From the IMG/VR virus record IMGVR_UViG_3300020204_000006: DNA of 64,000 nucleotides. The stretch is one strand, 5' to 3'. Below the pieces are notes generated by a model. It saw only the letters and a program-made list of their open reading frames with translations, was not told the origin of the DNA and searched no databases. Shown one piece after another: positions 1 through 64,000 of the stretch (position 1 is its first letter; every line of letters begins with the position of its first letter). Origin of the DNA: a virus. Made by a program: the position numbers and the translations under genes.

Positions 1-3000
1 TCCGATATCGAAAATTATTTTAAATCTAAATTTAATATAGGTTCAGATTTTAAAGGAACATTTAATAACAACAGGCTTTACTACATATCATCAGATTTTA
101 GTTTTAATAGTTTCTTGCCAGTTTTTGGCAATTTACGTTTTGATGATGATTTATTAAATCCAAATTCTCTTCTTGAGTATTCTAGTTTTAATGCTGGTTT
201 TTCTTCTCCCTTAAATGATGTTTCTGGTATTTATAGGCTAGAAGACTATAATCATTCGGGTAGCAATATAGTATACGAAGTTATAAAAAATTTAAATATA
301 GATGCACCTAAATCGGATCTTTATGAATTTTCTTTATTTTTGATATTTGAAAAGAAAACAGTTTTAGTAAGAAATCAAGAGACATTAGAAGATTACTGCT
401 ACAGAGTTGGAGGTGCATTGCCAGGTTCAAGTAGCAGTAGCAGTATAGGCAGCATCAGTAGTAGTAGCAGCAGTAGTAGTAGTTCTTTTGTTCCTCTTCC
501 ATGCATTGATGGTAATTCACCAGGTGGCTGTATGGATTTAGATGGAGATGGATTTATTGGCGGAGGCGATTTGGGCGTTTTGCTTGGTAATTGGAATAAT
601 CCCGGAAATGGTGATTTGGATGGTGATGGCGCAGTAGGCGGTAGTGATCTTGGAATTCTTCTTGGTAATTGGGGTAGATGTGTTGAGTGTCAGTCTTCAT
701 CTTCCTCATCTGGGGACATTTCTTCTTCAAGTTCTAGTAGTAGCGGGACTGGTCCAGGTACCTTATGTTCTTTTATAGAGGTTGAGGCTGGTGAAAAGAT
801 CACTGGAGCCATAAAAAGTGATGGTACGCTTGTTATATGGGGAGATGTGAATAGTGAAGTTATAACTTCTTTGCCGTCTTCTCTTCCTCAAATAACTAAA
901 ATTTCATTTGGAACTGCCCAAAGTAATGCTCATGCGGTGGCAATTTCATCTGATGGTTCAGCATTATGCTGGGGAAATAATTCACAAGGAGAATGCAACG
1001 TACCAGGTGATCTAGGAAATGTTATTTCTGTTTCTGCTGGTGCAAATCATACTTGTGCTGTAAAAGAAAATGGCGATGTTGTTTGTTGGGGCTTTAATAA
1101 TTCTGGTCAAACAAATGTTCCATCCGGTCTTAGTGGCGTTTCTAAAATTCACTCTCATGCTTCTCATAATATTGCCCTTAAAACAGATGGTACTGTATCT
1201 TGCTGGGGTTCTAATTTGCATGGTCAATGCAATGTTCCATCTGGTCTCGATGATGTAATAGAAATTTCCACTGGTAGTGGCCATTGCGTTGCGCTTAAGC
1301 GAGATGGAACTGTTGTTTGTTGGGGTTTAAATTCAAGTGGTCAGTGCAACGTTCCCTCTTTTGATGGATTGTCTGCAATCGCTATATCTGCTGGCGGTAG
1401 CTTTACCTCTGCTGTCCTGTTAGACGGAACAGTTGTTTCTTGGGGTATGAACACTTTTGGTCAAACTGATGTTCCATCTGGAATGGGATTTGTTATTAAA
1501 ATAGAATCAGGAGATGATCATACTGTAGTTCTTTTTTCTAATAATACGGTTTCTTGCTGGGGCAGGAATGATAAAAATCAATGTGATGTTCCAGATTCAT
1601 GCTTGACTCAAACTGAAATATCTAGATCTCTATCTATTAATCAATGTGATTCTTACATTGAGGGCCATGCAGAAAATGTATATTCTGGAAGATACAAAAT
1701 AGGGATTATAACAAGATCAAAGTCTTTGCCAACATTGTCTAGGGATTTGTATCCAGGTGGAACAGAGCTTCACATTTTTGATAAAATTTTTGAAAACAAA
1801 GGTTCAAATAGGATATCTATAGATGTTAATTACAGAAAGCTTGTTATTGAAGAAATGGAGCACTTGCTTTCAATAAGTAGTAAGGAAATTTTCTTCACAA
1901 ATCCATTAAAAGAAATCGACGAAAAGTATCCAAGGTTTATAAGAAATATAAGAGTTTTTTCTGACGGAGATATAGCTGGCTCCGTAACAAGATTTGCTAA
2001 TATAGAGGATAAAAGAAGACAATTTGACGCCTTCTTCGGTTCTTGCTCTAGAAGTCAAGATATACCATCTTATCTTGGCGTTCATATGATGAACGAGAAT
2101 ATAATTTTGGAACAGTCAAATATAAGAATAGGTAAACTTTCATATAAGCCTAATTCCAATATTACTCTTGATCCAAGGATATATGATTTTGAGAATATGC
2201 AATCTGTTGGGCTTTTGGAAACCCTGTCAAGAAATGAAAGTTTTGAATTTACAACTGAAGATCCCGGTGATTTTTACAATGTTTCTGAAATGTCTAGTTC
2301 TGTAGATGAGTGGTTTTCAGATAGATCTGGCTTTACTCATGTGGGTTCATATCTTGACGGTAAGCACGGCAGTAAATCAATAATTCTTCAGGACAACATT
2401 GATAGTATATCATCTGCAAATCCTGTTTTGCAAAATGACTCATATCATGCAAAGACATATTCTGAAATAAGAAACTATCAATTATCTTCTGGTTATAATG
2501 GTAAAATTTCACAAAATCTTGGTAGATCTGATTCAAGTGATTATACTTTCTTGGTTGATGCTGCAGTTATAGCGCCAAATCAGTTTATTAAAACGTATAG
2601 AACAATTGGACTTTTGAATGATGGAGTTATAAAATTTAATAACGTCTATTCTAAAAAATCAACATTTGATCAAAACAATAAGACTCTACAGTATGATACT
2701 TTAAAATTTTATTTTGAATCATCTTCTGCTCAAGATTATAGTCTTTTTAATCTTTCTTACCCGGCTAAGGCTGTACTGGACTCTGGAAATGAATATTTAG
2801 TGTATATAGACAACAATCATATCGCTAGATTTGTAAATTATCGCATGTCTATACCCCCAGATATCCAATTAAGAAAAGTTGCTGGTGCTACTCTCACCGT
2901 ACCTAGCAGTGACACAGGCACAACTTTCACCTTTCCTAGCAGTAGCAGTAGCAGTAGTAGTAGTAGTGATTCTTCTAGTAGTAGTAGTGATTCTTCTAGT

Positions 3001-6000
3001 AGTAGTAGTGAATCTAGCAGTAGTAGTAGTGAATCTAGCAGTAGTAGTAGTGAATCTAGCAGTAGTAGTAGTGAATCTAGCAGTAGTAGTAGTGAATCTA
3101 GCAGTAGTAGTAGTGAATCTAGCAGTAGTAGCCAGTCAAGTAGTAGCAGTCAGTCCAGCAGTTCTAGCAACTCCAGCAGTAGTAGCCAGTCAAGTAGTAG
3201 CAGTCAGTCCAGCAGTAGCAGCCAGTCCAGTAGTAGTAGTCAGTCAAGTAGTAGCAGTCAGTCCAGCAGTAGCAGCGGTTCCAGCAGCAGCAGCAGCGGT
3301 TCCAGCAGCAGCAGCGATTCCAGCAGTAGCAGTGGTTCCAGCAGCAGCAGCAGCGGTTCCAGCAGCAGCAGCGGTTCCAGCAGTAGCAGCGGTTCCAGCA
3401 GCAGCAGCGGTTCCAGCAGTAGCAGCGGTTCCAGCAGTAGCAGCAGCGGTTCCAGCAGCAGCAGCGATTCCAGCAGCAGCAGCGATTCCAGCAGTAGTAG
3501 CAGTTCCAGCAGTTCTAGTAGTTATTTTGAAGATATGCCTTTTGGAAATACGAAAGTTTTGATGGTTGCTTCTGGTATCGGTTTTGTAGTCGCTATTGAC
3601 GAAAATTATAAATTAATAGGAAACTATGATCCTGGTCTTGCTAGTGCACAAATTCAGTCTGACATTAATACTATTAATGCATTGTATACAAGTGATGACG
3701 ATGCAATATACGCAGAATACGTATCTGCTGGATCTGATTTCTTTGCAATTAAAACATTAAATGGATACTGCGAGGTTTATGGAAATACTTATTCTTCCTC
3801 TCTACTTCCACCTTCTGGACTTAAAATCATAACATTTTCTTGTGGAGGTGATTTTATAGTTGCGATTAGTAGTACCGGTTCATTGGAAGCTTGGGGAAAT
3901 GATAGCAATATAAATAACAATGTCCCATCTGGTTTGTTTACGTCAGTTTCTTGTGGGTCTTCTCACGCATTAGCTATAGACGTTGATGGTTCTGTGTATG
4001 CATGGGGCGACAACTCTTTTAACCAATCTAATGTTCCATCAGGATTAAAAGCCGTTGAAATTTCTGCTGGTTCAAAGTTCTCATTTGCAATAGATTCTGA
4101 ATTTAAAGTTGTTTATTGGGGAGAAATTGATTTTCAGTATAATTCTGGGACCATACCTACCTTTGCTTGTTCTGTTTGGTGCAGAAACGATACTGTTTTA
4201 ATAGGCGGATTTGCAAATGAATGGAACCTTTTTACCGATATTTCTACGCACAAATATGAATCGTTTTTGTATTATTTGATAGAGCATCCTATTAGATATA
4301 GAAGTAATTCTGATATATGGGCTCCTGGTCCAGTTATAGATCTTTTTAGGCTTTATGATTCTAATGCATCAGTTGAGACAAATCTTAATAGATATTGTAG
4401 GTTGTTAGGATACAAAGACAATATTTGTTCTAGTGATTTTAAGATAAATGATCCATTAGTGCTATCGCAAATACCTGTTTCTGTTTCTGCAAACTCTTTA
4501 TCAAAGAATATAGATGCAAAAAGATTTGAAGAGGATAGAATAGGGCTATGCTATCAGTCAAATATAAAAAATTATAGATCGGACATATATTATAGGGGCT
4601 ACCTAAACCATTTTTCTATATTTGGAAAAAATTATTATCTTTCAAAAGATATTCAAAATCAAATATCTTCTTTCGAACCTTCAATTGGAAATGACTACTA
4701 TGGAAATTCTATAGTAGCATGGAGATCTCAAGATTCTACAGCTTCAAAAGAAAACAATTACATATACTCTTCTTTTATATATAATGGATCTTCTGACATT
4801 AACAAATGCCTTCTTGATGAAATGCTTTATAAGTTAAAAGATTTCTTTATTTACGATCCATACGATCCATATTCATTTAAAATATTGCCGCAAGTTTGTG
4901 AGGTTGAATTTACTTTTAAGGCACCAGCTTCTAATACATTTAATTTCTTTGTAGATTTTTATTATGACGATGAATTTAAGAATAAGGCTTATTCTTATTC
5001 CTCTTCTGTAGATCCTTCTATTTGGTCTGTTGATGGAGTAAATGCATATGCTGATGGCCATTATGCTCAAGCTGGTGATGAATTACTTGTAAGATTCCAT
5101 GCTTCTGATATTGAAGAATTGTCAAATAAAGTTTTATTTGTTAAAATAGGTTTTAATTCTCAGTCTTCATCACTCAAACATGGCCTTGTCTCTCAAAATA
5201 ATAATGAAATTAAGGACCCACTTGCTGTTTCATCAGATATATCTGGAAATAATCCAAATTTAAATTCAAACTCTAAGATTTGGGTAATGCCAGAAATTAT
5301 ATCTTCTGATATAAATTTGCCAAAACAGGAATTTATAAATTACAAGTCAGAAGATGGCATACTGAGATTTAATTTTTATGATAATAGCAGGTCGTCATTA
5401 GATGGCATTTCAATAGGAGAAACAGCTAAATCTTTTTATGTCCATATACAAAGAGGTAGTGGGAACTCTGAATTCTCAGATTTTGTTTTACGTTTTGGTG
5501 GCACTGTATCCTATGTTGGTTTTACCAAAGAAGATTTAGATATATCTTCTTCTTACTCAATTGGTGAAGGTGTTGCATATCCTCAATCAAATTCATCAGT
5601 TTCTAATGGACTGGTAGATGGAGAATTTATATCTATAGATTCTTCAGGAAGAAAAATAATGTTTAGGTTAAAAACAAAACAAAATGGTCTCAGATCTTTA
5701 AGAGTCGTAATTAAGGAGAATAAATTTATTTCCGGCAATTTTAATTCTGTATTTTTATGCAACTCAAAAGAATCAGCAGAATGTATTACTCAAATTCCTT
5801 TTATAAATAAAACTTCAAATTCTTCTTTATTTAAAATTAAAATGGATATTTATTCAGACGAGGATTGCCTAAATTACGTTGGATCTTTTGATTCAAGTGT
5901 AAACGTAAATTGCTTTACAAATGGGATAATGGGATATTATCAGTGTCCTTCTAAAAATATTATATACGTTAACTTTATTCCTCCCGTTATGGAATACATA

Positions 6001-7782: not shown

Positions 7783-9288
7783 ATGGCAGATTTAGTTGCA
7801 AAAAACATATTGTCGCCTTCGGGTGGTGAGGAGTTTTTTCCTGATCAATCTGTTTTAGTAACTTTTGATAACATAAGCTATCCGGACGACCAATTTTATT
7901 TTGATCTTTTTGTAACTTTAAATTATGATGGGATAGATAATTCCAATTGGGATTTTATAGCAAGACTTCCAATAGGTGTTCGCGAATATGAACTTTTTTT
8001 TAAAAAACCTATTTTTGGTAATAATATTAGACTGGCTACATGTGGTGTTTCTAGAAAGGGCATAAGATCAATTAAAAATGTTATGCCAAGGTCTTTTTCT
8101 TTTCGTCCTAGATTAGTAAAGGATCCAGTGCTAATCAATCCTGTTTCCAACAAATCATATTCAAATACTATAGAAATTTTGATAGACAATTCTTATTTAA
8201 ATTATTCTGAAAAAAGTAACATAAGATTTTATTCTTATTTTTCTTCTAACTTTTTAGGCATATTAAATTCCCCAATAGCCGAGAGGGTTGATTCTAGTAT
8301 TTCTCAAATAAAATGGAACATAGCAGATCTTCCCAACTCTGATGATTATGAAATTTTATGCTATTATTCGGACGATTTAGGGAACAGATCTTCGGATGTT
8401 GTAATTAAAAATTTAAACATAACAAATCCTGGACTTTGCATAATTGACACGGAACCTCCACAAACTGCTATAAAAATACAAAATGATTCTGAATACATAT
8501 CAGATCCAAATGTATCAATAAAGCTTTATAGTTATGATGACACAACTGGAATAAATGGATTTGTTTTTAAAGAACTTAGATTTAATGAAGAAAATGAAAT
8601 ACAAGAAGTAAAAAAGTCTGAACCAAGAAATTATGATATTAACAATTTTTATACTGTTTTAGATGAAGATGGTAAAACCTACATAGGTGCTTTGGTTGAA
8701 GATGTAGCTGGTAATAGAACTGATTATTCACTGGAGTATAATTCTTCACTTACTTATAACATAAATTATTTTAGATCAAGTAACCTTAATATAGAAAATT
8801 TTAATGTAACTGCTTCATCTTCAGATGGTGTTTCGGCGTATTTTGCAGTAGAAAAAAATGGTTTATATTATTTGTATAGGAAAACTGAAATATTTACTAT
8901 GGTAAAGGAGCTACCTTTGCCCTGTATCGCCATAAAAAACTCTGCAGACGACGTTGTAATGTCTTTTGAGAACTCTAATAGGTCACTTGAAATAAAAAGA
9001 TTTAGTAATAATACTTTATTTGAAATATTTAAAAGTAGCTCAAAAAACACCATGTGCAATTCAATTGAATTTTATAAAAATAGTTATTATCTTGGTTGTG
9101 ATGATGGCTCACTTTACAGGCTTAACGCATCGTCTGTTTCTATTGTCGCAGACATTAGTACATTTAAAAAGCCAATAAGGCTTATTGAAAAAACAAAAAA
9201 TAATGTAATGAATATATACGTTAATTTAGGGGCAGAAATATATTCTTTTGATGGACAAAACATAGTCAGGAGCGATATATTAATATGA
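7783..9288 (+). CDS. ORF2: 501-aa putative virion protein: FnIII/Ig-like domains plus C-terminal beta-propeller-like region
   Basis: ATG with GGAG upstream (7774-7777). Ig-like unit IDTEPP...DDTTGI...VEDVAGN at 8443-8715; C-terminal YYLGCDDGSLYRL-type blades. Confidence 0.8.
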   Translation: MADLVAKNILSPSGGEEFFPDQSVLVTFDNISYPDDQFYFDLFVTLNYDGIDNSNWDFIARLPIGVREYELFFKKPIFGNNIRLATCGVSRKGIRSIKNVMPRSFSFRPRLVKDPVLINPVSNKSYSNTIEILIDNSYLNYSEKSNIRFYSYFSSNFLGILNSPIAERVDSSISQIKWNIADLPNSDDYEILCYYSDDLGNRSSDVVIKNLNITNPGLCIIDTEPPQTAIKIQNDSEYISDPNVSIKLYSYDDTTGINGFVFKELRFNEENEIQEVKKSEPRNYDINNFYTVLDEDGKTYIGALVEDVAGNRTDYSLEYNSSLTYNINYFRSSNLNIENFNVTASSSDGVSAYFAVEKNGLYYLYRKTEIFTMVKELPLPCIAIKNSADDVVMSFENSNRSLEIKRFSNNTLFEIFKSSSKNTMCNSIEFYKNSYYLGCDDGSLYRLNASSVSIVADISTFKKPIRLIEKTKNNVMNIYVNLGAEIYSFDGQNIVRSDILI

Positions 9289-10832
9289 CAAATGAAGAAA
9301 ACTATTTAAATTTAGAAATATATGGCAAAAAAAATGAATATTCTTCTACTATAGAGGGTAAAAATCCTATTTTTAGAATAAGGTACGATAAAGAAAATGT
9401 AAACTCTTTTTCAAGCAATATTTCTGGGTATATAAAAGCAAAGTTTTTAGTAGAAAATTCTAATAATTTTATATATTTAAATGGATATTTTTATGATAAA
9501 AATGGAAATGAATTTAAAAAAGTTGAATATTTATTAAGTGGTAATAATATATACAACATGTACTCTTACTTTAAGAGTACTCCTGGCATAGGAATCAGAA
9601 TAGAAACTTCAAATCTTAGTTTTCTTTTTAGTGACTTTAAGCAGTATGAATCTGTTTATTATAATGGTTGGTATTATATATGTGCTTCTAAAGGATCCTT
9701 CCAAAAAAATTCTTATAGATCTGCTTTTTTAGGATCTTCTACATTTGATAGTTCTTTATATTATGACATGTTCTACACTATGTCTGACATTAATTCTCAG
9801 ACATATCTTCCAAGCGAATTTAAAAATAGTATTGGCGGTTACCTTTCTGATGGAAATGTTTTTGGAAATAGTTTTTTAATAGAAAACATGTACCCAGATT
9901 CTATAAATATAAGTATTCATGATCATGGTATATCTGATGGCCTTCAGCAAGGTAGTGTTATTGAAATAACAATAGATGAAGAAATAATGTCTGTTGAATT
10001 TATGAGAGCTGAGCAGCAGGGTAATATTGCTTTTTTTAAGATAATAGAAAGAGGCCTTTATTTTACTCCTATTCAGGGCCATATTATAAATTCTAAAGTA
10101 AAAAGAAATGATAAAACAGATATATTTAATTTTACATTTGATGAGTCTGGTCAGTATTTTACTCAGTTTAGATGTCTTGGTTTAAATATTAATGCTCAAC
10201 AGGGTGATTTCGTATGCTCAAACATATCTGCAAGATTTTCATGGGAGTCATCTCCATATTATACATATGATTTTGCTTTTGAAATACCATTATTTGAGAG
10301 AGTTATTTCAAGTAGTATATCAGGAAACAATTTTTCAATTAATGTTAACGAACTCTTGAAGGATTTATTGCTTTCAAGGTTTAATTCTAATTCAGTTTTT
10401 TCTCCATCACTTCTTGTTGGTATGCCTATAGTTGTTAATTCTACTGATGGCTCTTCTCATAAAAGATATATATCTAGTTATAACTCATCAACAAATCAAA
10501 TTATTTTTAATGAACCACTTCCATTTTCAATATCAATTAGTGATCAGGTTATTTTTGGTCCATCTCCCTCTAGGTCTTCAGTAAAAGGTATATCTATGGA
10601 TGAAAGCTCAGATCCTAGATTTAGTGGCTTCCTGGGTGTTGTTAGATATCAGGCAATAGGTGCATTGCAAAATATTTTATTACCAATACCTCCAATATTT
10701 ACACAAAGGTATTCATCAACCATAAAATCAATGGATACAATTTATATTTGGATTAAACGAGTTATTAAAAATAATAATATAAATAATTTCGACCAAAGAC
10801 TTTTTATGAATTTTGATTGCGAGGTAAATTAA
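9285..10832 (+). CDS. ORF3: 515-aa putative phage structural protein
   Basis: ATGA overlap with ORF2. Motifs SIGGYLS...TQFRCLGLN...IYIWIKRVI resemble a phage virion-protein pattern; the IDEEIMSV...IERG...H unit is a small beta module common in phage structural proteins. Confidence 0.7.
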   Translation: MTNEENYLNLEIYGKKNEYSSTIEGKNPIFRIRYDKENVNSFSSNISGYIKAKFLVENSNNFIYLNGYFYDKNGNEFKKVEYLLSGNNIYNMYSYFKSTPGIGIRIETSNLSFLFSDFKQYESVYYNGWYYICASKGSFQKNSYRSAFLGSSTFDSSLYYDMFYTMSDINSQTYLPSEFKNSIGGYLSDGNVFGNSFLIENMYPDSINISIHDHGISDGLQQGSVIEITIDEEIMSVEFMRAEQQGNIAFFKIIERGLYFTPIQGHIINSKVKRNDKTDIFNFTFDESGQYFTQFRCLGLNINAQQGDFVCSNISARFSWESSPYYTYDFAFEIPLFERVISSSISGNNFSINVNELLKDLLLSRFNSNSVFSPSLLVGMPIVVNSTDGSSHKRYISSYNSSTNQIIFNEPLPFSISISDQVIFGPSPSRSSVKGISMDESSDPRFSGFLGVVRYQAIGALQNILLPIPPIFTQRYSSTIKSMDTIYIWIKRVIKNNNINNFDQRLFMNFDCEVN

Positions 10833-26109: not shown

Positions 26110-26562
26110 ATGTCATACAGTAATTCTCAATACCTTGATATGTTTAACACTCTTCTTAGATCTGGTTATTCTAATATGTTTTTTCCTTGGAAATCTGATT
26201 ACCGAGCAAATATATCTGAAAATTTATCTAACATAATAAAAGAATGGGATTCTTTATCTATTCCTGAAAGAAAAGAATTGATTAAAAATATTATAAGAAA
26301 CGACCCAACTTTTAGTTGTTTTAGGCTTTCAACTTGTGTTGACCTTGGAAGTGAATCTTTTGATCCAACCGATGAATCTTTTGATGATTGCGATTTCGAT
26401 GGATATGATGATTGTGTCAAAAAATCTTTTTATCTAAATCGCCTTATTAAATTTATGAATTCTTCAGTTTTTACTAACATAAATGACAGAATAAGTGTAA
26501 ACTATTTTTATCAAAATAAAAATTTTAATTATTCAAAAAAACCTAGAGATTTAAGAAAATAA
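26110..26562 (+). CDS. ORF7: 150-aa hypothetical protein with acidic, Cys-containing core
   Basis: Fits exactly between ORF6 and ORF8 with 1-nt spacers on both sides. Confidence 0.75.
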   Translation: MSYSNSQYLDMFNTLLRSGYSNMFFPWKSDYRANISENLSNIIKEWDSLSIPERKELIKNIIRNDPTFSCFRLSTCVDLGSESFDPTDESFDDCDFDGYDDCVKKSFYLNRLIKFMNSSVFTNINDRISVNYFYQNKNFNYSKKPRDLRK

Positions 26563-30226: not shown

Positions 30227-30242
30227 TTTGTAACTTTTATGA

Positions 30243-30665: not shown

Positions 30666-30721
30666 AATATAACTACAAGTTATTATTTTGTTATTTTTGT
30701 ATGGACGATACATAGTTTAAG

Positions 30722-53810: not shown

Positions 53811-56800
53811 ATGGGATTTCCCAATACAGTACACGTACACGGCTCTTTAAGTGACTCTTCAATAGTTGGTCAGGGTAAATATCCTACTATATCCCCTTCA
53901 GCTGTTACTGTTATTGATTGTGGTAATTTTTATTCAGCAGAAAATTCTGGTGATTTGTTCTACATGGTTGATTTTCAGCAATCTGGTGCTGTATCTACTT
54001 CTTATGTTAGGACGATAGCTGATTCTATTGACAATTTTACTGGTGGTTCTTCAAGTTTTATTTATAAAATAAAATCTAGTTTTTCTGGCAAGGTTTATTA
54101 TGGTATTAGACTAGGTTTTACTGCAGAATTTTCTGGTTGTAGAATAAATTTTTATTACTCTAATTCTTTAAATCATTCAATATTTATTTCTGAAAGTGAC
54201 GTGCTTTCTTTGGGTGGTTTAAATAAGTTTTATTTTGTTCATGATTCTTTTACTGCTTTTGATTCAGAGGTTAGAGATTTTAAAATATCAATAGACGCTC
54301 CTGGTGTAATTATTGATTCTATAGTTTTTAGCGATTCTTCAGTCCGTTCTTTTCCTGATATACAGTCTTACATATCAAAAGAAATAGGTTCTATTTTTTC
54401 CCTTGAGTCAAATATTGATCAGAGCGTATCTCTTTCATATGCTTCTTTAAAATCAAAAATTGATTATTCTTCTATTACTCTTCACATGCAAATCTATTTG
54501 ATAGATCAATCTGAAAGAGTTGTTGGTTTTCTCAAATGCCATTCATACATAAATACAAATTCAATAATATTTGATGACGGGTGGATTGCTTTTAACATAA
54601 ATTATTTTAAAAATTATTCTGCTCAAGATCAATATTTTATAATGCAGAATTTCAAGCTTGGCATATCATTGGTCGGTTGCCCAAAAAATGAAAATTTATA
54701 TTTCATATGGTCTCAAGCCGCAGATTACAATTCTGGATTTTTGACCATGAACAGAAATAATGAAGATCAGCTTGTTCAATCTGAATATGATCTGGCGGTA
54801 AAATTATTTGATCAAGGTGAAAGTTCATCTGAAAATAATATACAGACACAGTCTCCTGAAGTTCAAAATTTGATAATAAATAATTTTGATAACTACAAGT
54901 ATTCAAATCCAGTAAATGTAGACATAGAGAATATAGATGACAAAAGAAGTCAAATGGTTTTGAAACTTCCAGACAGAGTTGTGACATTCCTTTTTGACGT
55001 AAGTGGATCTATGACATGGAATGACCCTAATGGTAAAAGATTTGATGTTGCAAAATCTATAATAGACAGATTTGCTGGTGGATATCCTGGCAACCTAAAT
55101 TACCAAGTATTAACTTTTGGTGGAACTAGAATTCTTACAGAGTGGTTTGGTGTTGTTGAAGGAAAAGTTAGTGATACATCTGACGCAAACGAAGCTAAAA
55201 GAAAAGCCTTTTTTGATGAGGCTTTTAAGTTTAATGGTGTTCAAATAGTAAGAAAGAAAGGTTCTCCTCCGGTATCTCCAACGGATGGAGACATAGTTTT
55301 TTCTGGATATTCAAAAATACTATACGACTCTGGGCTAGAAGAAAATACAGAATATTATTATTCCGTATTTAGTCAAACTGATGATGGTAGATTTTCTGAT
55401 CCAGTTGTGATAAAGGCTGTCCCAGAGCCTAGAATTGTTCCATCTGGAATAAAAAATTTAAATGGAAAGTCTTTTAAGGCTTCGGGCATTTCTAGAGATG
55501 TAAACACTCATTGTCTTTTGCACATGGATGAGTCTGGAGGTCTTAATATATTTGACTTTGCAAAAGGGGCAATATTTGTTTATAAAAATACAGAAGAAAA
55601 TTCTTTGCCTATATGGATAGAAAAAAGTGAGTCTATACCTTCATCAAGTGTTCAAGGTGAGGGTAAGGGCAGTGGTCTAAGATTAAATGGCAAAAGTGAA
55701 TATATTCACGTTGAAGATAGTAGCTTTAATCCACTAGTTTCTGAATCTTTTGGATTTATGGTTTGGGTTTACCCATTTTCCTCCAATGAATCATATTTTG
55801 ATTCTCAGCTTGGCTTGATTAATTTAACAAAATCAAATGATGAAATTATTAGAATTTTTATTCAAGAAGACGGTAGCTTATTTGTAAATTCTTCATTGGG
55901 GTCTTTTGTTTCTTCAGAAAAAATTACACCCAATACATGGAATCATATTTGTATTTTTTCAGACTCTTCATCTTCTAAATTATACATAAACGCAAATGAG
56001 GAAGTACACGGTAGTATTTATTCTGGTGAGTCAATAAAAAATTTAGAAATAGGAAGATCTACTGACGATACTTATTACTTTGGAAAAATAACAGAGTTTT
56101 CTCTTCACTCTTCAATAAGAGGTCCTTCGTATGTGTCAGAGCACTACAACAATGTCCCTTCTTGGAATGGAGAATCTATTGCGGTTATGTCATTTGACGT
56201 TCCATCTTCTTACTTAGATGGGAGTAAAAGGTACTCAATAAGGTATAAGCCGGAAATAGGTCCTCTTAGGCATTTGAGTGACGATATAAGTGGGCCTGCA
56301 AATTATGGTTCCTATCAGGGTGATACCGGATTAAGACCGGAAAATGTCCCTCCTGGTTACGTCGTAAGAAATGTAAATTTTTCTAGAATAGTATATGGTG
56401 ATGACTTGGGTCCTACTCATGTGTTTGATGGTACCGAATTTAAGTCTGGAATAATAGACAAAAAAAGTTATAAGCATGTTTTTATTGGTGATTTTGCATC
56501 TCCTTTTGATGAAATTGAAAAACTTTCTATAGGATTAGAGGCTCCCGGTTTTAGACATTTCTTTAGAATTTTTACAATAAATCAAAACGATATATCTTCT
56601 TTGCCAGAAGATAGTGGATTGTTTGAATTTACTCCTCCTATTTGGCGGCAAAGATCAGAATATCCTGTTCAAATATCAGGCGTTTCGGATGTAGAGTATT
56701 TTGTTGGCGACTCAAAAGTCATGCTAACTTGGAATTTAAACAATAAGCAAAATGTAGAAAATATTTTAGTTTATTTTAGTAGGAAGTATAATCCAGACAT

Positions 56801-59800
56801 ACATGCCGCATATAGAAAATACAACGATGCAGCTTCTACCATGGAATTATATCCTGTGTTTTTGGGAGATAAAAATTCCACAGAGTTTGTTTTAAGAAAA
56901 GGTATAGTAGAATTTGCAAGAAGAAATACTAATGACCAGAATAGCCAATTTCAAAATCTCGGACCAATCGGAAGATGTCCAGAGTGCGATCTTCTTAATG
57001 GAGAAAAAGGTTATTTTTCAATATACACCAGAGATAAATTTGGCAATTATAGTGAGCCTGTTTTTGTTGAGGCAATTCCAAATCCAGGAAATCAAGAGTC
57101 GGCTATACCTCCGGATCAAATATTTGGCATTAGATATCAGCCTGTTGATGAGCAGAGTGTCTCAATAAGATGGATTAATCCTAGTAAGATAAATTCATAT
57201 TCTGATATACAATGTTGGCTTGACGACAGAATAGTTTTTTACTTCAGGGCAACTGATATATTTGGTAGAAAATTAGAGACAAGATATGAATTTAAATTTG
57301 TAACAAGTAGAGGTATTGACGTTTCAAATACAGACTCATTCGGTTTTCCTGGTCAAATTTTTCATGGATTCGGTGGTAATTCTTGGGGGTCTAGGTCTTT
57401 TTACTCAGAGCCTCCTCCTCTTGGCTTTTCTGATTCTGAGGCAATTTCTTTATTTTTTGATCCCGAAAGATCAGAGGCACTTAGGGAAAAAATATATTTC
57501 TCTAAAATAGTCAGTGTACAAGAAGTAAAAAATTCATTAGATGGATATTATAAAATATTTTTTGATCTTTCTAATGCTTCTTCTGACCAGCTTTCTATGA
57601 TAAATCAGGTGTATTTTGCTGCTCAAATAGTTTTGAGAACATCAAAAGATATAAGAGAAAATGCTATTGCAGACAGATCAAATACTTCTATAATATTTGA
57701 TTCTCAAGATAAATTTGAGTATGCTACTTTGCCAATAAGGGTTTTAATGGATCAGCCACTTGCTATAGTGGCATATCAGAATGGCAATGTTGTATATCCA
57801 AGAGGCACTACTTTATTTGTTCCTGAACCAGGTCCTGGTAATGTTAGCTTCGATCCCTGTGATGATGCATTTTATGGTCAATCTCAAGATGGGTTTTACT
57901 ATGAAAGCGGTAAATTAACACCAGGCTGTTATGTTTCTAGAAATAGACCATACTCAATTTTAATTAGAGCTTCATATAGGAAGCAGCCATTGCCGGATGG
58001 CACATTAATAGATGCATATGTGTATAACGATGTTAGTCCATATGATCCTTCTTTATCAAATAGATTTAATGCTTTTTCTGTTTGGGGGGAAATTTGTGGA
58101 TTAGTGGCATATTGCAATCAAGACAGTCTTTTGGATCCAGATCCTTTTGCTGGTACATATTCTTTAAGCAACATAGGTTTGCTTAGTTCTTCTGGAACCT
58201 TTGCGACTCATTCTTCTGGTAGATTTTCAGAATGCGTATATAGAATACCTGTTCCTGATTCTCCTTCTTCTGTAAGAGTAATATTCAAACTAAGTATTGA
58301 TAGTTTTTTTGCATGTCCTCAAGTATATTTGAATTTTGTATCTAATTTAAGAATAAAAATTAATACAAGGGGACCTATAGCTGATGGAGTAGACGTTGCA
58401 AAGCAACTTTGTTTTGCATATACAATAGACCCAGATTTTGATGTTTCATCTGGAAACAATGTTGATATAGCTCAACAGTATATACAGCCAGTACCTGATT
58501 TTACCCCAATATCTTGGGAGCTATTGAAATATAGAAACGCCAAAGAAAGACCTTTTTATTCTACTTCTCAACAGCAGAACAATGGATCTTTTGTTTTGGC
58601 AGATGGAGTGTTTGATTTTACTCAAAATGGCTATAGTCAAAGTGTGTTTTTTGGTCCAGCAAACGGAGTAGTTGCTAGTTTAATTGGAGACGGAGAAGAT
58701 GTATTTTTAATAGGAGAAGAATACGCTATTAAGGCTTCTATTACATATAACGGTTATACAGTAAGTGCATTTGGCCCTGCTTGTATATTCCCAATTAATA
58801 CAACAAGTAATTCCGATAATCCTGATTTACCTTCAATAAAAAAATCTTCATTTTTTATGTCAAATGCAAATGGAGAGTTTGTTGAGAATATATATAGTGA
58901 CGGTAAAGACTATGCGGTATTTTTGGTTTCTAGGGATCCAGAAATCACTTATGTTAATTCTTCAGGGGTTTTAAGATCAACTGTTTCTGGTTTCTTAAAA
59001 TGCTATAATTCAACCTTGTTTGATGATTCTGGTATAGAAAATGCAATTATTTATAAACCACAGGTTGGTTCTTCTTTGCTTTTTGAAATTATAAGGCCAT
59101 ATTCTTATTTTGAATCAACTGAGCCTTATTGGAAAAACCAAGTAAAAATAATACACAAGAATCTTCTTTTCGTAGAAGAAAATGGCGTTGTAGTCCCAAG
59201 AGGTGACGTTGTGTCCTCCAATTCATCTTTTGTGTCTATTGGAAACGAAAATGAAAATCTTATTGCCATTACTTGTAATGCATTTATTCCTTTAATGTGG
59301 TCAAAATTTGGAGAGCCCACTACGTTGAAAGACAACGGTATGATATGCTCCCATATACATCAGAATCCTTTTGGTTCTGCTGGTGCAATTGGTCCTCCTC
59401 AAGTTCCTTTTATAGACTATGATATAGAAATAAAAGGAACTATAAGTGCAACTGTAGACGGAAAAAGCCAGAATATAATTAGTTCTGGTAACTGGGGCAC
59501 TGGCAATCCACCAAAATTTGTTAAGTTTATAGAGCCTCTCAGGGTAGATCTTGCTTATGTTATGGTTAACGGTCAACCTTCATCTACATTAAAAATAGAT
59601 GGTTTCTCTCAAAATAGACTTGTTTTTGTAGTTACTTTTGCTGGAAGGCCAGTTTCTGAAAATAGCATACTTAAAGTGTATCAGTGTGGCACCGAAATAC
59701 TTGTACCAGAACAAGATATAATAAGAGCAGAAATAAAAAATGATCCATTTTTTACCGGTAGGGATATTTCTGGTAATATAATACCTGGATATATCCCGGG

Positions 59801-62800
59801 TAATCAAAGTTTTTTCTATCTTGATATATTGCCAATACAAACTATTGATTTAGTTGATTGCAAAATTTTTGTTGAAAGTAATTATGACGAGTCTGGAACT
59901 ATCGCTAGGCAAAGAGTTCTTGGAGTAAAGATAAATTATGTTCCTAGTAGTGGTGGTGGTACATCAGGATTTTTTGACTCTGATGTAGAAGTATCTTCTT
60001 CAAGTAGTTATTCGGAAGAATCGCCAGACTCTTCTAATGGAGAGGGTTTTTCTTCTTTTGTCGGTGATGCTGGTTTCATTACAGATAGTGAATCTTCTTC
60101 GTCTTCTTCTTCGTCATTTTCTTCATCCTCTTCTTCGTCTTTTAACATACCCATATTAGAAGATGATCTTTCTGAAGCAGTTAGACCATCAGGTTCGTCG
60201 CCTTTTACAAAAACATGCTATATATATGATTTGTCCCTAGAGGGTCAAGAAGAGACTTCCCCTTGGATTAGAATTGCAGATATGGCAATGGATAGAGCTT
60301 GGAGCTCAACTGAGTATATAAATGGAAATATTTATAACATAGGTGGAGTTATATCTCCTGGTATAACATCTTATAATGAGTACTGGATTGCTAGTCAAAA
60401 TAGATGGGTTTACAGGGCTGCCATGCCTGTTTCTAAATTTGGCATGCAAAGCTGCAATGATGGTCGTTATATATATTGTTTTGGCGGCATAGAAATAGCA
60501 GACGTTAGGGTTGGTGGTGGATTTGGTGGTGGCATGGGTGGACCAACAGGGGGTGGCACTTCTAGTTCATCTGGCTCAAGTTCAAGCAGTTCCATATTAA
60601 CTCAAAGAAGACCAGTGGTTTCCACTACTGTTCATAGATATGATACAGTCACCGACACTTGGATTCAACTAAAGTCTATGCCTGTTTTAGATGTAGATGG
60701 TAATGATATTAGTGATACTACTATACCAAGCAACCTCAGTATAACAAAATATGGTGTTGCTTTTGGCAAGGCTCATTTAGTAGGCGACAAAATTTATATA
60801 ATTTGCGGTGCTAACTATATAAATTATTCAACTTTTGAGCCATCAAAAATGAATGACAGAATATTAATTTATGATATTTTAACAAATAAGTGGTCCTTTA
60901 GTGAAGCTCCTGATGATCTGTCAAAAGCTACTTATCAAAGAGTTTATCCGTCTTCTTTCATAAAAGACGATAAAATATTTGTTTTTGGTGGTACAAAGTA
61001 TGAAATACAGCTTGAAACAATTTATGTAACTGGATGGTTTGGTTCTATACAGGTTCCTTATACTAGTAAAATAACTGCTACAGATATTTACAGCATAGAT
61101 TTAGGAGTATTTAGTGCATCAAATTATTCTTCTATGAATTTCAGTATATCTGATGCAAGTTATTTATTCGACACAATACCTTATCCAAGAGATCAGGCTG
61201 GATGTTTGGTTCTTAATCAAGATATTTATGTTCTTGGTGGTAGGATACTTCCGAATGGCGACTATCCTGGCACCCCTCATTCTAGGAAGTTTGAAAGACT
61301 TGTTTATTCAAATGGTTCCTATTCTCATCAGAAAATTGAAAAAATACCCCAGGGAAGAAGTATTTTTGGTATGGTTTCAGATAGTCTTAGTAGAATATTT
61401 GTATGCGGTGGTATAATATCTTCATTTGCTCCAGGGTATGCTCAAATAAAAGTTGAGGCATATGGAGAGCAGACCGAAAAAAACTCTGATTATACTGTAA
61501 GCATTTACGAAGAAGCAGATGCAGTTGTTAGGCTTGACGGAAGATCTTCTTGCGACTTAATAGTAACTTTGTATGATGAAGAAGGCGACATAATAGAAAA
61601 AAGTGTTCGTGTAGAAATATACGGATCTATTAAGTTTCCAACTGAAGATGACTTTGAAGATGGCCCAGGAATGGGATTCTTTAACAGAGGTGCAGAAGTA
61701 AGAAAAAGAATACTTAAAAGAAGAGGAACAAGAGTCTATCCAATTCAAATATCTCCACAAAATTCACTCTCACAAGATGGCAAGATTTTTGCAAAAGTTC
61801 TTCCTAGAACAGAAGATCCCCTTAGGACTCTAAGTGAAATTGCATCTATACTTAATAGGGATGTAAGTACAGACGGTGTTGGAGATCAATCTGATATAAT
61901 AAATATTGTTCAAGATACTGTTAGATTCCCATATCAAATTGTAATTTCAGCTCAAGTTGTTGATGATTTTTACTTTGGAAGTACAGTATATAATCCTATT
62001 TCCTCTTCAAGTTCATCTTCTGATGTTCTTTTTTATCCTGAGCTTTTTGAGCCAGATACTCAGGCGGATGCTGGAGAGTTTTCATCAGCCAGATCTATGC
62101 CCTCATTTAAGGTAATAAATACATCTGGCACTAGTGCAGTTTTGCCGACTTACTTTTTTGATCGTGGTTTTATTCTCATGACTCAGCAATTTGGATTTAT
62201 TGGCACAGTTGGAGATTCAGATCTTTATGCTGTTACTGTTCCCAAAACAGGATCTTATAAATTAAGTGTTGTAAGAAGAAACTTTAGTTCAATTAAAACA
62301 AAAGTAAAAATATACAACTCAAATACTCTTCCATATCCTGTGTGCTCAACTGGCGGTTCTAATACAATAGCATTTAGAAACCAATTTGGTATACCAGAAT
62401 ATTTTTCGCCATGTGGTTCGGCAAATCTTGGAGAAATAGGAGACGCTATAAATCTTGTTGCTGGAAAATTATATTATCTTGAGGTTTCTGCTCTTGATGA
62501 AAATTCAACAAATTTAAGTGAAAAAGTAGGAGAATATTCTCTAAGGCTTGGCATAGTTATTAACCAAAATGAAGTTGGTTTTTATGCAAATATATATAAT
62601 TCTGGATCTCAATCTGGATCGTCATTTAGATCTGTTCGATCCTCTGGTAATAATTCATATTCTGATGGAGCTATTCAGGGTTCTTCCGATTCCGAAGAGA
62701 GTTTTGCTGCTTTGAATTTTAGAAATGGCTCATCTGACTGTATATTTACTTGTCCAGAGTGTCTGCCAGATAGCTCTAAGTGGGCTGGAGTTTCATGTAC

Positions 62801-64000
62801 GGGAAGTGACAATACTAATTGCGTATCTCTTCAAGTTGACTCATCTCCTCCTTCTGGCAGTCTTGATTTCTATTCATTTAGAAGCTTGCAGACATCATCA
62901 AGTACTTCTTCTGATCCTTACGATCCTTATGGAGGCGTAGTTGTTCCTCCTCCACAACCTCCGATTACTCTGCCAGAATATCTTTCTGTAGAATTTTCTA
63001 ATATAGATATTGTAATTTTAGCAAACTCTGCTGGTTTTTCTTTATTTGATAGAAACACCAGTCCTATTATACAGTATTACGCAGATTTTGACTGGATACC
63101 AGAAGTTAGAGAAGTATTATCAATAGATGACGGTAATTATTCAAATGTGAATTTAGCTATAAATAGACTCAAAAATATACCTCCATTTGGTTGCTCTCCA
63201 CTTTTTGATGGTGTTGACTCTATAGTTAGATCTTTCGATTTACAGAAGCTTGATCCATACTATCAGGATTTTAAAGAAACGCTGTATATAATGACAGATA
63301 ATGATGAGAATACAAGTGATTCAAACCCTGATGATGTTGCTTCAAATGTCAATTCTATATCTGGAGAATTTAATACTCCTATTGTTGCATACAATTTTAA
63401 CTTGTTTAAGCCAACCACAATAGCCAATGAGGCATCTGTTGCCAACTCTGGCTCTTTAGCTAGATTTATGAAGCAAGTTGGTGGAGAAATAATTAACTTT
63501 GTTGAAGAATCCATATATGAAAAATATGTTGACTTTGGAGTTGGTGAGGCAATAGGAGGTGTTGGTCACGGAGAAATTGAGCTTTTAATATCATTTGATG
63601 AGAATGTATCCATAACAGGTTTTGAGTATGAGTTTGAAAAACCAAATTTTACAAACATATTATGGAATGCAAAATCTTCTTCTGATGGTGAGACTTTCGA
63701 TAATGATAAAACATTTTACGACATAAAAGAAGGCAAACAAGAAAAATTTATTAATAGCAGTTTTATTAAATTGACTTTTAAATTCTTGCATTTCTTTAAG
63801 GATTCTTTTGTAGATCCTTATGAAATTTCACCTGATGCAGAAACTCCTAAGATAAAATCAGTAAAAATTTATTATAATTACCCAAGGGAAAACATAATAG
63901 TCCTTAAATCTCTTAATTTTACTGACAATCCACAACAGGTATCAATAAATATAATTGCAGAAAATGATGAAAACAGCAAAATATATGTAGGTGTTTCTTC
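53811..64000 (+). CDS. ORF11 (absent from the ORF track, 3'-truncated, >3,390 aa): giant adhesin-like virion protein: split vWA, FnIII, LamG, invasin/Big_1-like Ig, Kelch propeller and PPC domains
   Basis: ATG GGA TTT CCC... at 53811. The frame is open at every point translated, including the window end (GAA AAT GAT GAA AAC AGC AAA ATA TAT GTA GGT GTT TCT), and the track lists no stop-terminated ORF in this frame. Motifs: FLFDVSGSM (54987-55013), LamG at about 55500-56155, Kelch at about 60260-61430, PPC at about 62190-62560, YIMTDNDEN (63285-63311). Confidence 0.9.
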   Translation, partial: MGFPNTVHVHGSLSDSSIVGQGKYPTISPSAVTVIDCGNFYSAENSGDLFYMVDFQQSGAVSTSYVRTIADSIDNFTGGSSSFIYKIKSSFSGKVYYGIRLGFTAEFSGCRINFYYSNSLNHSIFISESDVLSLGGLNKFYFVHDSFTAFDSEVRDFKISIDAPGVIIDSIVFSDSSVRSFPDIQSYISKEIGSIFSLESNIDQSVSLSYASLKSKIDYSSITLHMQIYLIDQSERVVGFLKCHSYINTNSIIFDDGWIAFNINYFKNYSAQDQYFIMQNFKLGISLVGCPKNENLYFIWSQAADYNSGFLTMNRNNEDQLVQSEYDLAVKLFDQGESSSENNIQTQSPEVQNLIINNFDNYKYSNPVNVDIENIDDKRSQMVLKLPDRVVTFLFDVSGSMTWNDPNGKRFDVAKSIIDRFAGGYPGNLNYQVLTFGGTRILTEWFGVVEGKVSDTSDANEAKRKAFFDEAFKFNGVQIVRKKGSPPVSPTDGDIVFSGYSKILYDSGLEENTEYYYSVFSQTDDGRFSDPVVIKAVPEPRIVPSGIKNLNGKSFKASGISRDVNTHCLLHMDESGGLNIFDFAKGAIFVYKNTEENSLPIWIEKSESIPSSSVQGEGKGSGLRLNGKSEYIHVEDSSFNPLVSESFGFMVWVYPFSSNESYFDSQLGLINLTKSNDEIIRIFIQEDGSLFVNSSLGSFVSSEKITPNTWNHICIFSDSSSSKLYINANEEVHGSIYSGESIKNLEIGRSTDDTYYFGKITEFSLHSSIRGPSYVSEHYNNVPSWNGESIAVMSFDVPSSYLDGSKRYSIRYKPEIGPLRHLSDDISGPANYGSYQGDTGLRPENVPPGYVVRNVNFSRIVYGDDLGPTHVFDGTEFKSGIIDKKSYKHVFIGDFASPFDEIEKLSIGLEAPGFRHFFRIFTINQNDISSLPEDSGLFEFTPPIWRQRSEYPVQISGVSDVEYFVGDSKVMLTWNLNNKQNVENILVYFSRKYNPDIHAAYRKYNDAASTMELYPVFLGDKNSTEFVLRKGIVEFARRNTNDQNSQFQNLGPIGRCPECDLLNGEKGYFSIYTRDKFGNYSEPVFVEAIPNPGNQESAIPPDQIFGIRYQPVDEQSVSIRWINPSKINSYSDIQCWLDDRIVFYFRATDIFGRKLETRYEFKFVTSRGIDVSNTDSFGFPGQIFHGFGGNSWGSRSFYSEPPPLGFSDSEAISLFFDPERSEALREKIYFSKIVSVQEVKNSLDGYYKIFFDLSNASSDQLSMINQVYFAAQIVLRTSKDIRENAIADRSNTSIIFDSQDKFEYATLPIRVLMDQPLAIVAYQNGNVVYPRGTTLFVPEPGPGNVSFDPCDDAFYGQSQDGFYYESGKLTPGCYVSRNRPYSILIRASYRKQPLPDGTLIDAYVYNDVSPYDPSLSNRFNAFSVWGEICGLVAYCNQDSLLDPDPFAGTYSLSNIGLLSSSGTFATHSSGRFSECVYRIPVPDSPSSVRVIFKLSIDSFFACPQVYLNFVSNLRIKINTRGPIADGVDVAKQLCFAYTIDPDFDVSSGNNVDIAQQYIQPVPDFTPISWELLKYRNAKERPFYSTSQQQNNGSFVLADGVFDFTQNGYSQSVFFGPANGVVASLIGDGEDVFLIGEEYAIKASITYNGYTVSAFGPACIFPINTTSNSDNPDLPSIKKSSFFMSNANGEFVENIYSDGKDYAVFLVSRDPEITYVNSSGVLRSTVSGFLKCYNSTLFDDSGIENAIIYKPQVGSSLLFEIIRPYSYFESTEPYWKNQVKIIHKNLLFVEENGVVVPRGDVVSSNSSFVSIGNENENLIAITCNAFIPLMWSKFGEPTTLKDNGMICSHIHQNPFGSAGAIGPPQVPFIDYDIEIKGTISATVDGKSQNIISSGNWGTGNPPKFVKFIEPLRVDLAYVMVNGQPSSTLKIDGFSQNRLVFVVTFAGRPVSENSILKVYQCGTEILVPEQDIIRAEIKNDPFFTGRDISGNIIPGYIPGNQSFFYLDILPIQTIDLVDCKIFVESNYDESGTIARQRVLGVKINYVPSSGGGTSGFFDSDVEVSSSSSYSEESPDSSNGEGFSSFVGDAGFITDSESSSSSSSSFSSSSSSSFNIPILEDDLSEAVRPSGSSPFTKTCYIYDLSLEGQEETSPWIRIADMAMDRAWSSTEYINGNIYNIGGVISPGITSYNEYWIASQNRWVYRAAMPVSKFGMQSCNDGRYIYCFGGIEIADVRVGGGFGGGMGGPTGGGTSSSSGSSSSSSILTQRRPVVSTTVHRYDTVTDTWIQLKSMPVLDVDGNDISDTTIPSNLSITKYGVAFGKAHLVGDKIYIICGANYINYSTFEPSKMNDRILIYDILTNKWSFSEAPDDLSKATYQRVYPSSFIKDDKIFVFGGTKYEIQLETIYVTGWFGSIQVPYTSKITATDIYSIDLGVFSASNYSSMNFSISDASYLFDTIPYPRDQAGCLVLNQDIYVLGGRILPNGDYPGTPHSRKFERLVYSNGSYSHQKIEKIPQGRSIFGMVSDSLSRIFVCGGIISSFAPGYAQIKVEAYGEQTEKNSDYTVSIYEEADAVVRLDGRSSCDLIVTLYDEEGDIIEKSVRVEIYGSIKFPTEDDFEDGPGMGFFNRGAEVRKRILKRRGTRVYPIQISPQNSLSQDGKIFAKVLPRTEDPLRTLSEIASILNRDVSTDGVGDQSDIINIVQDTVRFPYQIVISAQVVDDFYFGSTVYNPISSSSSSSDVLFYPELFEPDTQADAGEFSSARSMPSFKVINTSGTSAVLPTYFFDRGFILMTQQFGFIGTVGDSDLYAVTVPKTGSYKLSVVRRNFSSIKTKVKIYNSNTLPYPVCSTGGSNTIAFRNQFGIPEYFSPCGSANLGEIGDAINLVAGKLYYLEVSALDENSTNLSEKVGEYSLRLGIVINQNEVGFYANIYNSGSQSGSSFRSVRSSGNNSYSDGAIQGSSDSEESFAALNFRNGSSDCIFTCPECLPDSSKWAGVSCTGSDNTNCVSLQVDSSPPSGSLDFYSFRSLQTSSSTSSDPYDPYGGVVVPPPQPPITLPEYLSVEFSNIDIVILANSAGFSLFDRNTSPIIQYYADFDWIPEVREVLSIDDGNYSNVNLAINRLKNIPPFGCSPLFDGVDSIVRSFDLQKLDPYYQDFKETLYIMTDNDENTSDSNPDDVASNVNSISGEFNTPIVAYNFNLFKPTTIANEASVANSGSLARFMKQVGGEIINFVEESIYEKYVDFGVGEAIGGVGHGEIELLISFDENVSITGFEYEFEKPNFTNILWNAKSSSDGETFDNDKTFYDIKEGKQEKFINSSFIKLTFKFLHFFKDSFVDPYEISPDAETPKIKSVKIYYNYPRENIIVLKSLNFTDNPQQVSINIIAENDENSKIYVGVS

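Follow-up and report, generated by a model that had tools for sequence, protein, structure and literature searches.

A candidate host-contact block of giant, serine-tethered proteins with modules of binding and predicted glycan-cleaving type in a very large uncultured phage

The stretch of DNA analysed here ("the window"; 64,000 nucleotides (nt) of IMG/VR virus record IMGVR_UViG_3300020204_000006) holds eleven open reading frames (ORFs), g1 to g11, and is read as probably the larger part of a late gene block of about 85 kilobases (kb) with which a very large uncultured freshwater tailed phage encodes its host-contact appendages. A probability of roughly 0.6 is given to this reading. What is observed is how the genes are laid out, that they are under purifying selection, to which folds and families their domains belong, and that the block is syntenic with a viral contig; a place of the proteins in the virion, their action as enzymes, the substrate and the host are inferred. 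Conserved gene order, tight coupling between the genes and conserved protein termini suggest an assembled structure, and the variable, tethered modules of binding and cleaving type suggest adaptation to the glycans of a host surface.

All eleven ORFs lie on the + strand and together make 98.9% of the window coding; successive ORFs are separated by 1-nt gaps, except at two overlaps (of 1 or 4 nt) and at gaps of 42, 114 and 551 nt. Six of the products are longer than 1,800 amino acids (aa), namely g1 (2579+), g5 (2830), g6 (1859), g9 (2688), g10 (4950) and g11 (3396+), of which g1 is open at its 5' end and g11 at its 3' end because they extend past the window edges. G+C content runs from 29 to 40% across the window, and GC skew is positive throughout, except near the 551-nt gap. 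Because the ratio of non-synonymous to synonymous substitution rates (dN/dS) is 0.18-0.31 for g4, g5, g7 and g8 when these are compared with metagenome contig L012 (97-98% identical), the ORFs of the window can be taken as real genes under purifying selection. An earlier interpretation made from the letters of this DNA, the "sequence-only reading", had described eleven co-oriented coding sequences over about 99% of the window, six proteins exceeding 1,800 aa and the lack of a hydrophobic leader at any visible N-terminus, and each of these statements is upheld by the ORF map and by a hydropathy scan in which the best 10-residue Kyte-Doolittle mean on the 10 visible N-termini is 1.46. The same reading had named secretion signals in advance as the observation that would point to a bacterial adhesin locus. 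These were looked for and none was found at the N-termini or as Pfam domains: no 19-residue segment of the window proteins resembles a membrane helix (the maximum is 1.65, in a segment that contains T, N and D), and no Pfam match to Por_Secre_tail, autotransporter, LPXTG or C-terminal RTX domains occurs in the eleven proteins. A classical secreted bacterial adhesin locus is rejected on the grounds that the proteins have neither a signal peptide nor a membrane anchor, and that they bear no signature of the type IX secretion system (T9SS), the type V secretion system (T5SS) or LPXTG sorting. The genes and the modules recognised within them are as follows.

1-7740, + strand: g1, 5'-truncated giant, 2579 aa visible
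529-681, + strand: dockerin-like module of g1, double Ca-loop motif, under the Pfam threshold
757-1593, + strand: RCC1 beta-propeller of g1 (Pfam)
2926-3534, + strand: poly-Ser linker of g1, 203 aa, 18/21-nt tandem repeats
3721-4131, + strand: second, shorter RCC1 region of g1 (Pfam)
7783-9288, + strand: g2, 501 aa, no family recognised
9285-10832, + strand: g3, 515 aa, no family recognised
10834-12033, + strand: g4, 399 aa, no family recognised
12035-20527, + strand: g5, 2830 aa, conserved core giant, no domain recognised
20529-26108, + strand: g6, 1859 aa, conserved core giant
24081-25067, + strand: 7-bladed beta-propeller of g6, aa ~1185-1513 (AlphaFold2 (AF2) model)
26110-26562, + strand: g7, 150 aa, no family recognised
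26564-30226, + strand: g8, 1220 aa, shared domain in the C-terminal region and (SPPP)n
29510-29920, + strand: shared domain of g8, aa 983-1119, 70-91% identity to IMG/VR contigs
29927-30199, + strand: (SPPP)n tract of g8, ~90 aa, 12-nt tandem repeat
30778-38844, + strand: g9, 2688 aa, RCC1, glycosidase-like paralogue and poly-Ser
33544-34218, + strand: RCC1 propeller of g9 (Pfam)
34357-36939, + strand: glycosidase-like paralogue in g9 (similarity to the g10 domain)
36940-37353, + strand: poly-Ser linker of g9 (repeat)
38844-53696, + strand: g10, 4950 aa, predicted multi-enzyme giant
44685-46694, + strand: glycosidase-like (beta/alpha)8 barrel and C-terminal beta domain of g10, aa 1948-2617 (AF2 model)
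46695-47372 and 47727-48404, + strand: two ~226-aa poly-Ser linkers of g10, flanking a 118-aa domain with no assigned fold
48405-51206, + strand: heparinase II/III-type lyase module 1 of g10, aa 3188-4121 (Pfam, above cut-off)
51264-53693, + strand: probable second lyase module of g10, aa 4141-4950 (Pfam, below cut-off)
53811-63998, + strand: g11, 3'-truncated conserved giant, 3396 aa visible
54984-55127, + strand: partial VWA of g11 (below cut-off)
55689-56123, + strand: LamG of g11 (Pfam)
60192-61412, + strand: Kelch propeller of g11 (Pfam)

The extent of the block is indicated by a relative. Six of the genes (g1, g2, g5, g6, g9 and g11) match in order positions 371-84,881 of a second IMG/VR contig, G006 (223,646 base pairs; CheckV completeness 55%), whose first 84.5 kb hold 17 co-oriented genes, including those for proteins of 3286, 2808, 1849, 5596, 2587 and 3965 aa. 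The visible part of g1 corresponds, in the same order, to the last ~2,100 aa of the 3,286-aa protein, and some 1,200 N-terminal aa of g1 probably lie upstream of the window; g2 has a counterpart of 29% identity at the equal position; and the homologue of g11, at 3965 aa, aligns with it in three segments at 29-33% identity, which leaves g11 short of ~540 C-terminal residues. The adjacent pair g5-g6 is conserved, in that both proteins recur at 25-30% identity over their full lengths on six metagenome contigs as well as on G006, g5 always being followed by g6, and the slot before g5, that of g4, is filled in all relatives by a gene for 330-400 aa. The most conserved part of g6 is its first ~50 residues, which have 41% identity among distant relatives, and its C-terminal ~300 aa are also conserved, ending in a Gly-rich to poly-Gly stretch which is found again in the consensus of relatives that are 25% identical.

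This pattern of conservation can be described in terms of two layers. The conserved layer would comprise, in an order that the clade retains, the C-terminal 700 aa of g1, g2, the gene in the g4 position, g5, g6 and g11, and would probably constitute a structural framework of a fibre or tail tip. The variable layer would comprise the RCC1 insertions, both predicted lyases, the long Ser arrays and the tip domain of g8, and may be regarded as lineage-specific cargo that is fused in cis to the framework by flexible poly-Ser tethers. The cargo proposed on this basis consists of RCC1 and Kelch propellers, a LamG lectin fold, two predicted lyases, two glycosidase-like TIM barrels and a putative Ca-binding dockerin-like module.

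The assignment of module 1 of g10 as a polysaccharide lyase of the heparinase II/III type is supported at the level of the family. When g10 is scanned in pieces, Hepar_II_III_C (PF07940) matches module 1 with 31.9 bits against a curated cut-off of 24 (E 1.2e-7), and the nearest ESM Atlas clusters (0.98, with 215 of 256 features in common) are bacterial PF07940 proteins of 900-1,130 aa. The closest of these clusters come from Armatimonadota and Planctomycetota, and ulvan and alginate lyases are also near module 1 in the Atlas; the Hepar_II_III_C superfamily as a whole spans lyases of heparin, alginate and ulvan. Module 2 (aa 4141-4950), which the same family matches with 22.3 bits, under the cut-off of 24, is probably a second, very divergent lyase. 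The two modules have diverged so strongly that they can be aligned solely in the region of the HxHxD...HN motif (HSHAD / HKHRD), which is present in both of them and whose HxHxD and HN residues may correspond to the catalytic and metal-binding residues of heparinase II and Alg17c. The ~450 residues ahead of the sandwich of module 1 are of a size that fits an (alpha/alpha) toroid, and this N-terminal region has no Pfam match to an alginate-lyase or heparinase N domain. The likeness to heparinase II/III-like lyases lies in the C-terminal domain and in the motif residues, and the differences are that module 1 is embedded in a signal-less protein of 4,950 aa and that its putative N-terminal toroid goes unrecognised by Pfam. 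Module 1 has no relative by tblastn in 50,697 GenBank phage records, and no sequence match in the PDB.

A second type of cleaving module is suggested by residues 1948-2617 of g10, a domain of 670 aa which has a paralogue in g9 and 14 free-standing homologues of 700-1,100 aa in metagenomes, none of them with a Pfam annotation; one member of this family carries RCC1 repeats in the same chain. The AF2 model of the domain, built from an alignment of homologues, has a predicted local distance difference test (pLDDT) value of 81 and a predicted template modelling (pTM) score of 0.87. In an exhaustive structure search with VIA, residues 12-665 of the model align to beta-galactosidases of glycoside hydrolase (GH) family GH42 and to a GH164 mannosidase with Z scores of 12.6-10.8, and all of the top 20 matches are TIM-barrel glycosidases, the best being 4ucf_A (Z 12.6, root-mean-square deviation 5.0 A, 383 aligned residues) and 6t5o having Z 12.3. 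Foldseek returned weak glycosidase matches only, at E > 0.001, for this model in the PDB and BFVD. The domain shares with GH42 and GH164 a three-part architecture that aligns across the whole 670 residues, and it differs from them in that identity is 8-10% and in that its sequence matches no Pfam family (at E <= 1), no family of the CAZy type and no described GH family. Among 16 sequences D167 is invariant, and E169, E360, E426 and E524 are nearly so; D167 and E169 directly follow a strand predicted at residues 163-166 in the AF2 model. The domain is glycosidase-like at the level of the modelled fold, and this term of the sequence-only reading is confirmed for the fold only; the TIM-barrel family may represent either glycosidases of an undescribed family or a barrel without catalytic function.

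The modules of binding type are distributed over several of the giants. Pfam detects RCC1 in two regions of g1 (E 5e-66) and in g9 (E 2e-20), a ConA-like LamG domain in g11 (E 1e-12), and Kelch repeats also in g11; g6 contains fn3 units at aa ~120-310 and ~745-830. VWA_2 matches g11 over the N-terminal 48 residues of the profile only, with 24.3 bits, short of the cut-off of 27. In g1, Dockerin_1 (PF00404) reaches 14.2 bits against a cut-off of 22.9 (E 0.052) on a 64-aa module in which a duplicated DxDGDG-x-[IV]-G-x-x-DL-x-x-LL-x-NW motif is plain, so that the module, which has Cys pairs and poly-Ser runs on either side, resembles a dockerin in its motif only. The expectation that glycan-cleaving and glycan-binding types of module would both be present is supported by Pfam, the fold search and the Atlas. 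From the list of domains proposed earlier, the RCC1 and Kelch propellers, LamG, fn3, one lyase, the glycosidase-like fold and the flexible linkers stand, and the vWA domain, the dockerin and the second lyase are weak.

The sequence-only reading had further envisaged a cellulosome-like assembly, and this has not been sustained. A cohesin was not matched in the eleven proteins (Pfam, E <= 0.01 for whole proteins and E <= 1 for segments; a divergent partner may lie elsewhere in the genome), the single dockerin-like module is below threshold, and cellulosome-like docking is rejected on the negative cohesin search. From the arrangement of their sequences, the predicted enzymes are joined in cis within single chains by poly-Ser linkers of about 200 aa, and are not docked. 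In g1, g9 and g10 the modules are kept apart by poly-Ser tracts of the form SSSSxS, 138-226 aa long and with 18-nt tandem repeats as their coding DNA, which bears out the flexible linkers claimed before. A common 18-nt unit, AGC AGT AGC AGC xxx TCC, is found in the Ser arrays of all three genes, and the domains that flank the arrays are highly diverged; this suggests that the arrays have been homogenised by recombination or have recently expanded.

If the proteins are virion appendages, the propellers and LamG would hold the particle on the polysaccharide coat of the host, and the tethered lyase and glycosidase modules would then cut a path to the cell surface during adsorption. A candidate for the contact point itself is found in g8, the residues 983-1119 of which (~135 aa) recur at 70-91% identity in eleven IMG/VR viral contigs where the remaining sequence is unrelated. 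An exchanged receptor-binding module usually shows itself as one well-conserved domain within proteins that are not related elsewhere. The g8 domain looks like such a horizontally exchanged tip, and may mark phages which have a common host. Its sequence pattern is reminiscent of a beta-sandwich of the pre-peptidase C-terminal (PPC) type, a call which Pfam does not make. In L006 the domain forms the C-terminal end of an 813-aa ORF; in g8 it is followed directly by an extensin-like (SPPP)n or poly-Pro stretch of ~90 aa with a 12-nt repeat, and then by GGGGYGYY. The (SPPP)n tract may act as a stiff spacer of the polyproline-II type, or it may be a site of glycosylation.

The locus is very probably of phage origin, a judgement drawn from indirect evidence, which includes the syntenic IMG/VR relative and the g8 domain shared with viral contigs. 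The packing of the genes is itself phage-like (one strand, 98.9% coding, 1-nt gaps or overlaps), and the locus belongs to a clade classed as viral by IMG/VR. Five of the eleven records with the g8 domain were checked, and a terminase together with a sheath was found in two of these (a complete contig of 229.7 kb and one of 101.9 kb) and a sheath only in one. For the 140 non-giant ORFs of G006, the best 25 of 79 matched families include RecA, UvrD, PHP (DnaE-type), nucleotide-metabolism enzymes, GDP-mannose dehydratase and NeuB. The RCC1 module has matches in phages of Marinobacter, Synechococcus, Salicola, Xanthomonas and Clostridioides, and it is this repeat that accounts for the match of window proteins to a PHROG named "tail protein".

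Several results weigh against the interpretation of the block as phage host-contact appendages. No baseplate, sheath, tube or tail-fibre family is matched in the eleven proteins. G006 gave no match to Terminase_6N, Phage_sheath_1 or Gp23, probably since the contig begins at the block, and a hallmark phage gene was found on no contig that carries the g5-g6 pair; the eight neighbours of the pair on contig L019 have no Pfam or PHROG match. The tblastn search of the 50,697 GenBank phage records that had returned no relative of the lyase was also empty for the C-terminal part of g1, g2, g5, g8 and g11, and matched in g6 a single 116-residue stretch beside the fn3 units. Finally, the AF2 model of g6 aa 860-1859 is poor (pLDDT 48), with a generic 7-bladed propeller as its only readable part, and because of this the scaffold role has to be argued from conservation.

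The failure of any protein to match a structural family of virions is what would be expected if the giants were encoded by a phage without being parts of its particle, either being released at lysis or acting in or on the infected cell, where, as free depolymerases with several enzymes on one string, they would clear exopolysaccharide or biofilm from the surroundings of the progeny or block superinfection. The TIM-barrel family does occur as stand-alone metagenome proteins of 700-1,100 aa, and the Atlas clusters nearest to the lyase are bacterial, both of which suit released enzymes. This explanation is nevertheless unlikely, because the genes form one tightly coupled, co-oriented block, because the conserved N-terminus of g6 and the fixed order g4-g5-g6 are typical of assembled structural components, and because the domain of g8 is found again in other phages, lying in L006 at the C-terminal end, which is the usual place of a receptor-binding tip.

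It is less probable still, indeed very improbable, that the locus is cellular and encodes giant surface adhesins or enzymes of an uncultured bacterium (predatory, episymbiotic or Planctomycetota-like), with the related "viral" contigs being misclassified. The lack of a hallmark gene beside the g5-g6 pair would agree with such an origin, as would the Armatimonadota and Planctomycetota sources of the Atlas clusters near the lyase and the fact that giant surface proteins of bacteria often contain RCC1, Kelch, LamG, fn3, dockerin-like and lyase modules; for Omnitrophota, giant genes have been described in one preprint (bioRxiv 10.1101/2023.11.21.568195). Against it stand the lack of a signal peptide, anchor or secretion or sorting domain on ten visible N-termini and nine C-termini, the absence of any g6 relative when 185,579 species genomes were scanned by pattern, the occurrence of the g8 domain at 70-91% identity on contigs with terminase and sheath, and the huge-phage-like character of the best 25 of 79 families on G006 (DNA repair and replication, nucleotide metabolism, sugar-nucleotide enzymes). 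A eukaryotic giant virus (Nucleocytoviricota or similar), with the proteins serving as capsid fibrils as in mimiviruses, is scarcely credible, since the overlapping or 1-nt-spaced genes suggest operon-style coupling of the prokaryotic type and G006 has bacterial-type RecA, UvrD and PHP/DnaE-type polymerase domains, despite the RCC1 and Kelch repeats, the extensin-like (SPPP)n, the low G+C and the glycosylation genes nearby in G006 which would suit it.

Multi-enzyme receptor-binding arrays on jumbo phages are already known. The long tail fibres of RaK2 are reported to consist of nine proteins, of which seven are depolymerases (PMC10253068), and RaK2, phiK64-1 (Alcyoneusvirus) and phiKp24 have what the window probably has as well, a run of adjacent co-oriented genes for proteins that bind the host surface, several of them polysaccharide-degrading (PMC10253068; PMC9700779). 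The window proteins have no sequence similarity to RaK2-type phages in tblastn, and no match in Pfam, PHROGs or PDB sequences to N-terminal anchor or branching domains like those of T4 gp10 or to beta-helix bodies. The enzymes of RaK2 are reportedly separate proteins of ordinary tail-fibre size which dock non-covalently on a branching fibre. The window, in contrast, fuses several unrelated modules in chains of 2,500-5,000 aa by way of poly-Ser stretches of ~200 aa, and its predicted enzymes either come from a lyase family of the toroid type or have the TIM-barrel fold, with no beta-helix tailspike detected by sequence or in the minority of regions that were modelled. The block, known here from its genes, would resemble the fibres of RaK2, phiK64-1 and phiKp24 by analogy of working, and is not a member of that group by sequence.

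A second point of comparison is the jumbo coliphage phAPEC6, which has many RCC1-like proteins (PMC7247149). Its virion proteome lists RCC1-domain proteins, and "hairy" flexible filaments on its tail and capsid are thought to interact with the host; the RCC1 proteins are stand-alone, of ~40 kDa, and have been proposed to order the packaged DNA, and are not assigned to fibres (PMC7247149). The RCC1 propellers of the window differ from these stand-alone proteins (PMC7247149) in being modules within giant chains.

The new elements of the present system are its scale of ~85 kb, the covalent design of "beads on a serine string", the unannotated TIM-barrel family, the glycosylation genes that adjoin the block in the relative, and a lyase of the heparinase II/III type for which tblastn found no counterpart among the GenBank phages. 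If the proteins are virion appendages, the phage would devote ~85 kb to host contact, perhaps a fifth of a genome of roughly 400 kb, with further giants elsewhere; this would amount to some 25,000-30,000 residues in chains of up to 5,000-5,600 aa, and would be a solution unlike the branched fibres of Klebsiella jumbo phages, since the modules would be strung covalently on Ser tethers. The block also holds two conserved giants, g5 and g6, in which fn3 and a propeller are the only folds to be recognised.

Very long Ser-rich tracts occur in the surface fibres of other systems, namely the serine-rich-repeat adhesins of Gram-positive bacteria and the glycosylated fibrils of mimiviruses. The likeness of the present block to these systems consists of the long Ser tracts of the window and of genes for soluble glycosyltransferases (GTs) beside the giants in G006, where two GT2 genes (84,904-87,471) come directly after the g11 homologue. 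The glycosyltransferases of that contig comprise at least six of GT2 and other families, including GT25, GT10 and GT1. The tracts differ from serine-rich-repeat adhesins in that the window proteins have no accessory-Sec signal or LPXTG, and in that they are near-pure SSSSxS rather than SAS or SES. A tentative proposal, more doubtful than otherwise, is that the SSSSxS tracts (140-226 aa) serve as acceptors for the phage's own cytoplasmic glycosyltransferases, which would give giant fibres with mucin-like O-glycosylation. Such fibres would be the counterpart in a bacterial virus of mimivirus fibrils or serine-rich-repeat adhesins, with enzymes at their tips, and the combination of Ser tracts and neighbouring glycosyltransferases opens the glycosylation of huge-phage virions to a direct test. 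G006 carries, 42 kb downstream, a second block of giants (127,234-152,899; 1936, 3947 and 2671 aa) which has many short Ser tracts.

The sequences of the remaining genes and regions have few relatives. The products g2, g3, g4, g5, g7 and g8 have no match in PHROGs, Pfam or NCBIfam, and most of g6, g8, g9, g10 and g11 has no match in these collections or in PDB sequences; the PDB sequence search was empty for g5 and g10, and when family profiles of g6 and g5 were compared with the PDB, fn3 alone was matched. There are seven homologues of g3 among 5.8 billion proteins and two representatives of g4 among 1.84 billion, and neither g3 nor g4 was matched in the IMG/VR scans. A common anchor or "trypsin-like" domain of g9 and g10 is not supported, their N-termini having no detectable similarity at this sensitivity. 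Within the N-terminal 1,900-aa region of g10, for which there is no other assignment, residues 560-617 (nt 40521-40694) give a weak match to the C-terminal RTX beta-roll of serralysin (E 0.0018, below cut-off), and this stretch may be a Ca-binding repeat.

The 551-nt gap between g8 and g9 (30227-30777) is the sole sizeable non-coding stretch in the window. No tRNA and no Rfam match was found in it, and the z-score of its RNA fold is -2.1. The G+C content is locally higher and the GC skew is reversed, and a minus-strand ORF of 101 aa (30266-30571) lies inside the gap, which could be a promoter region that divides the block into two transcription units, or could instead hold a small antisense gene.

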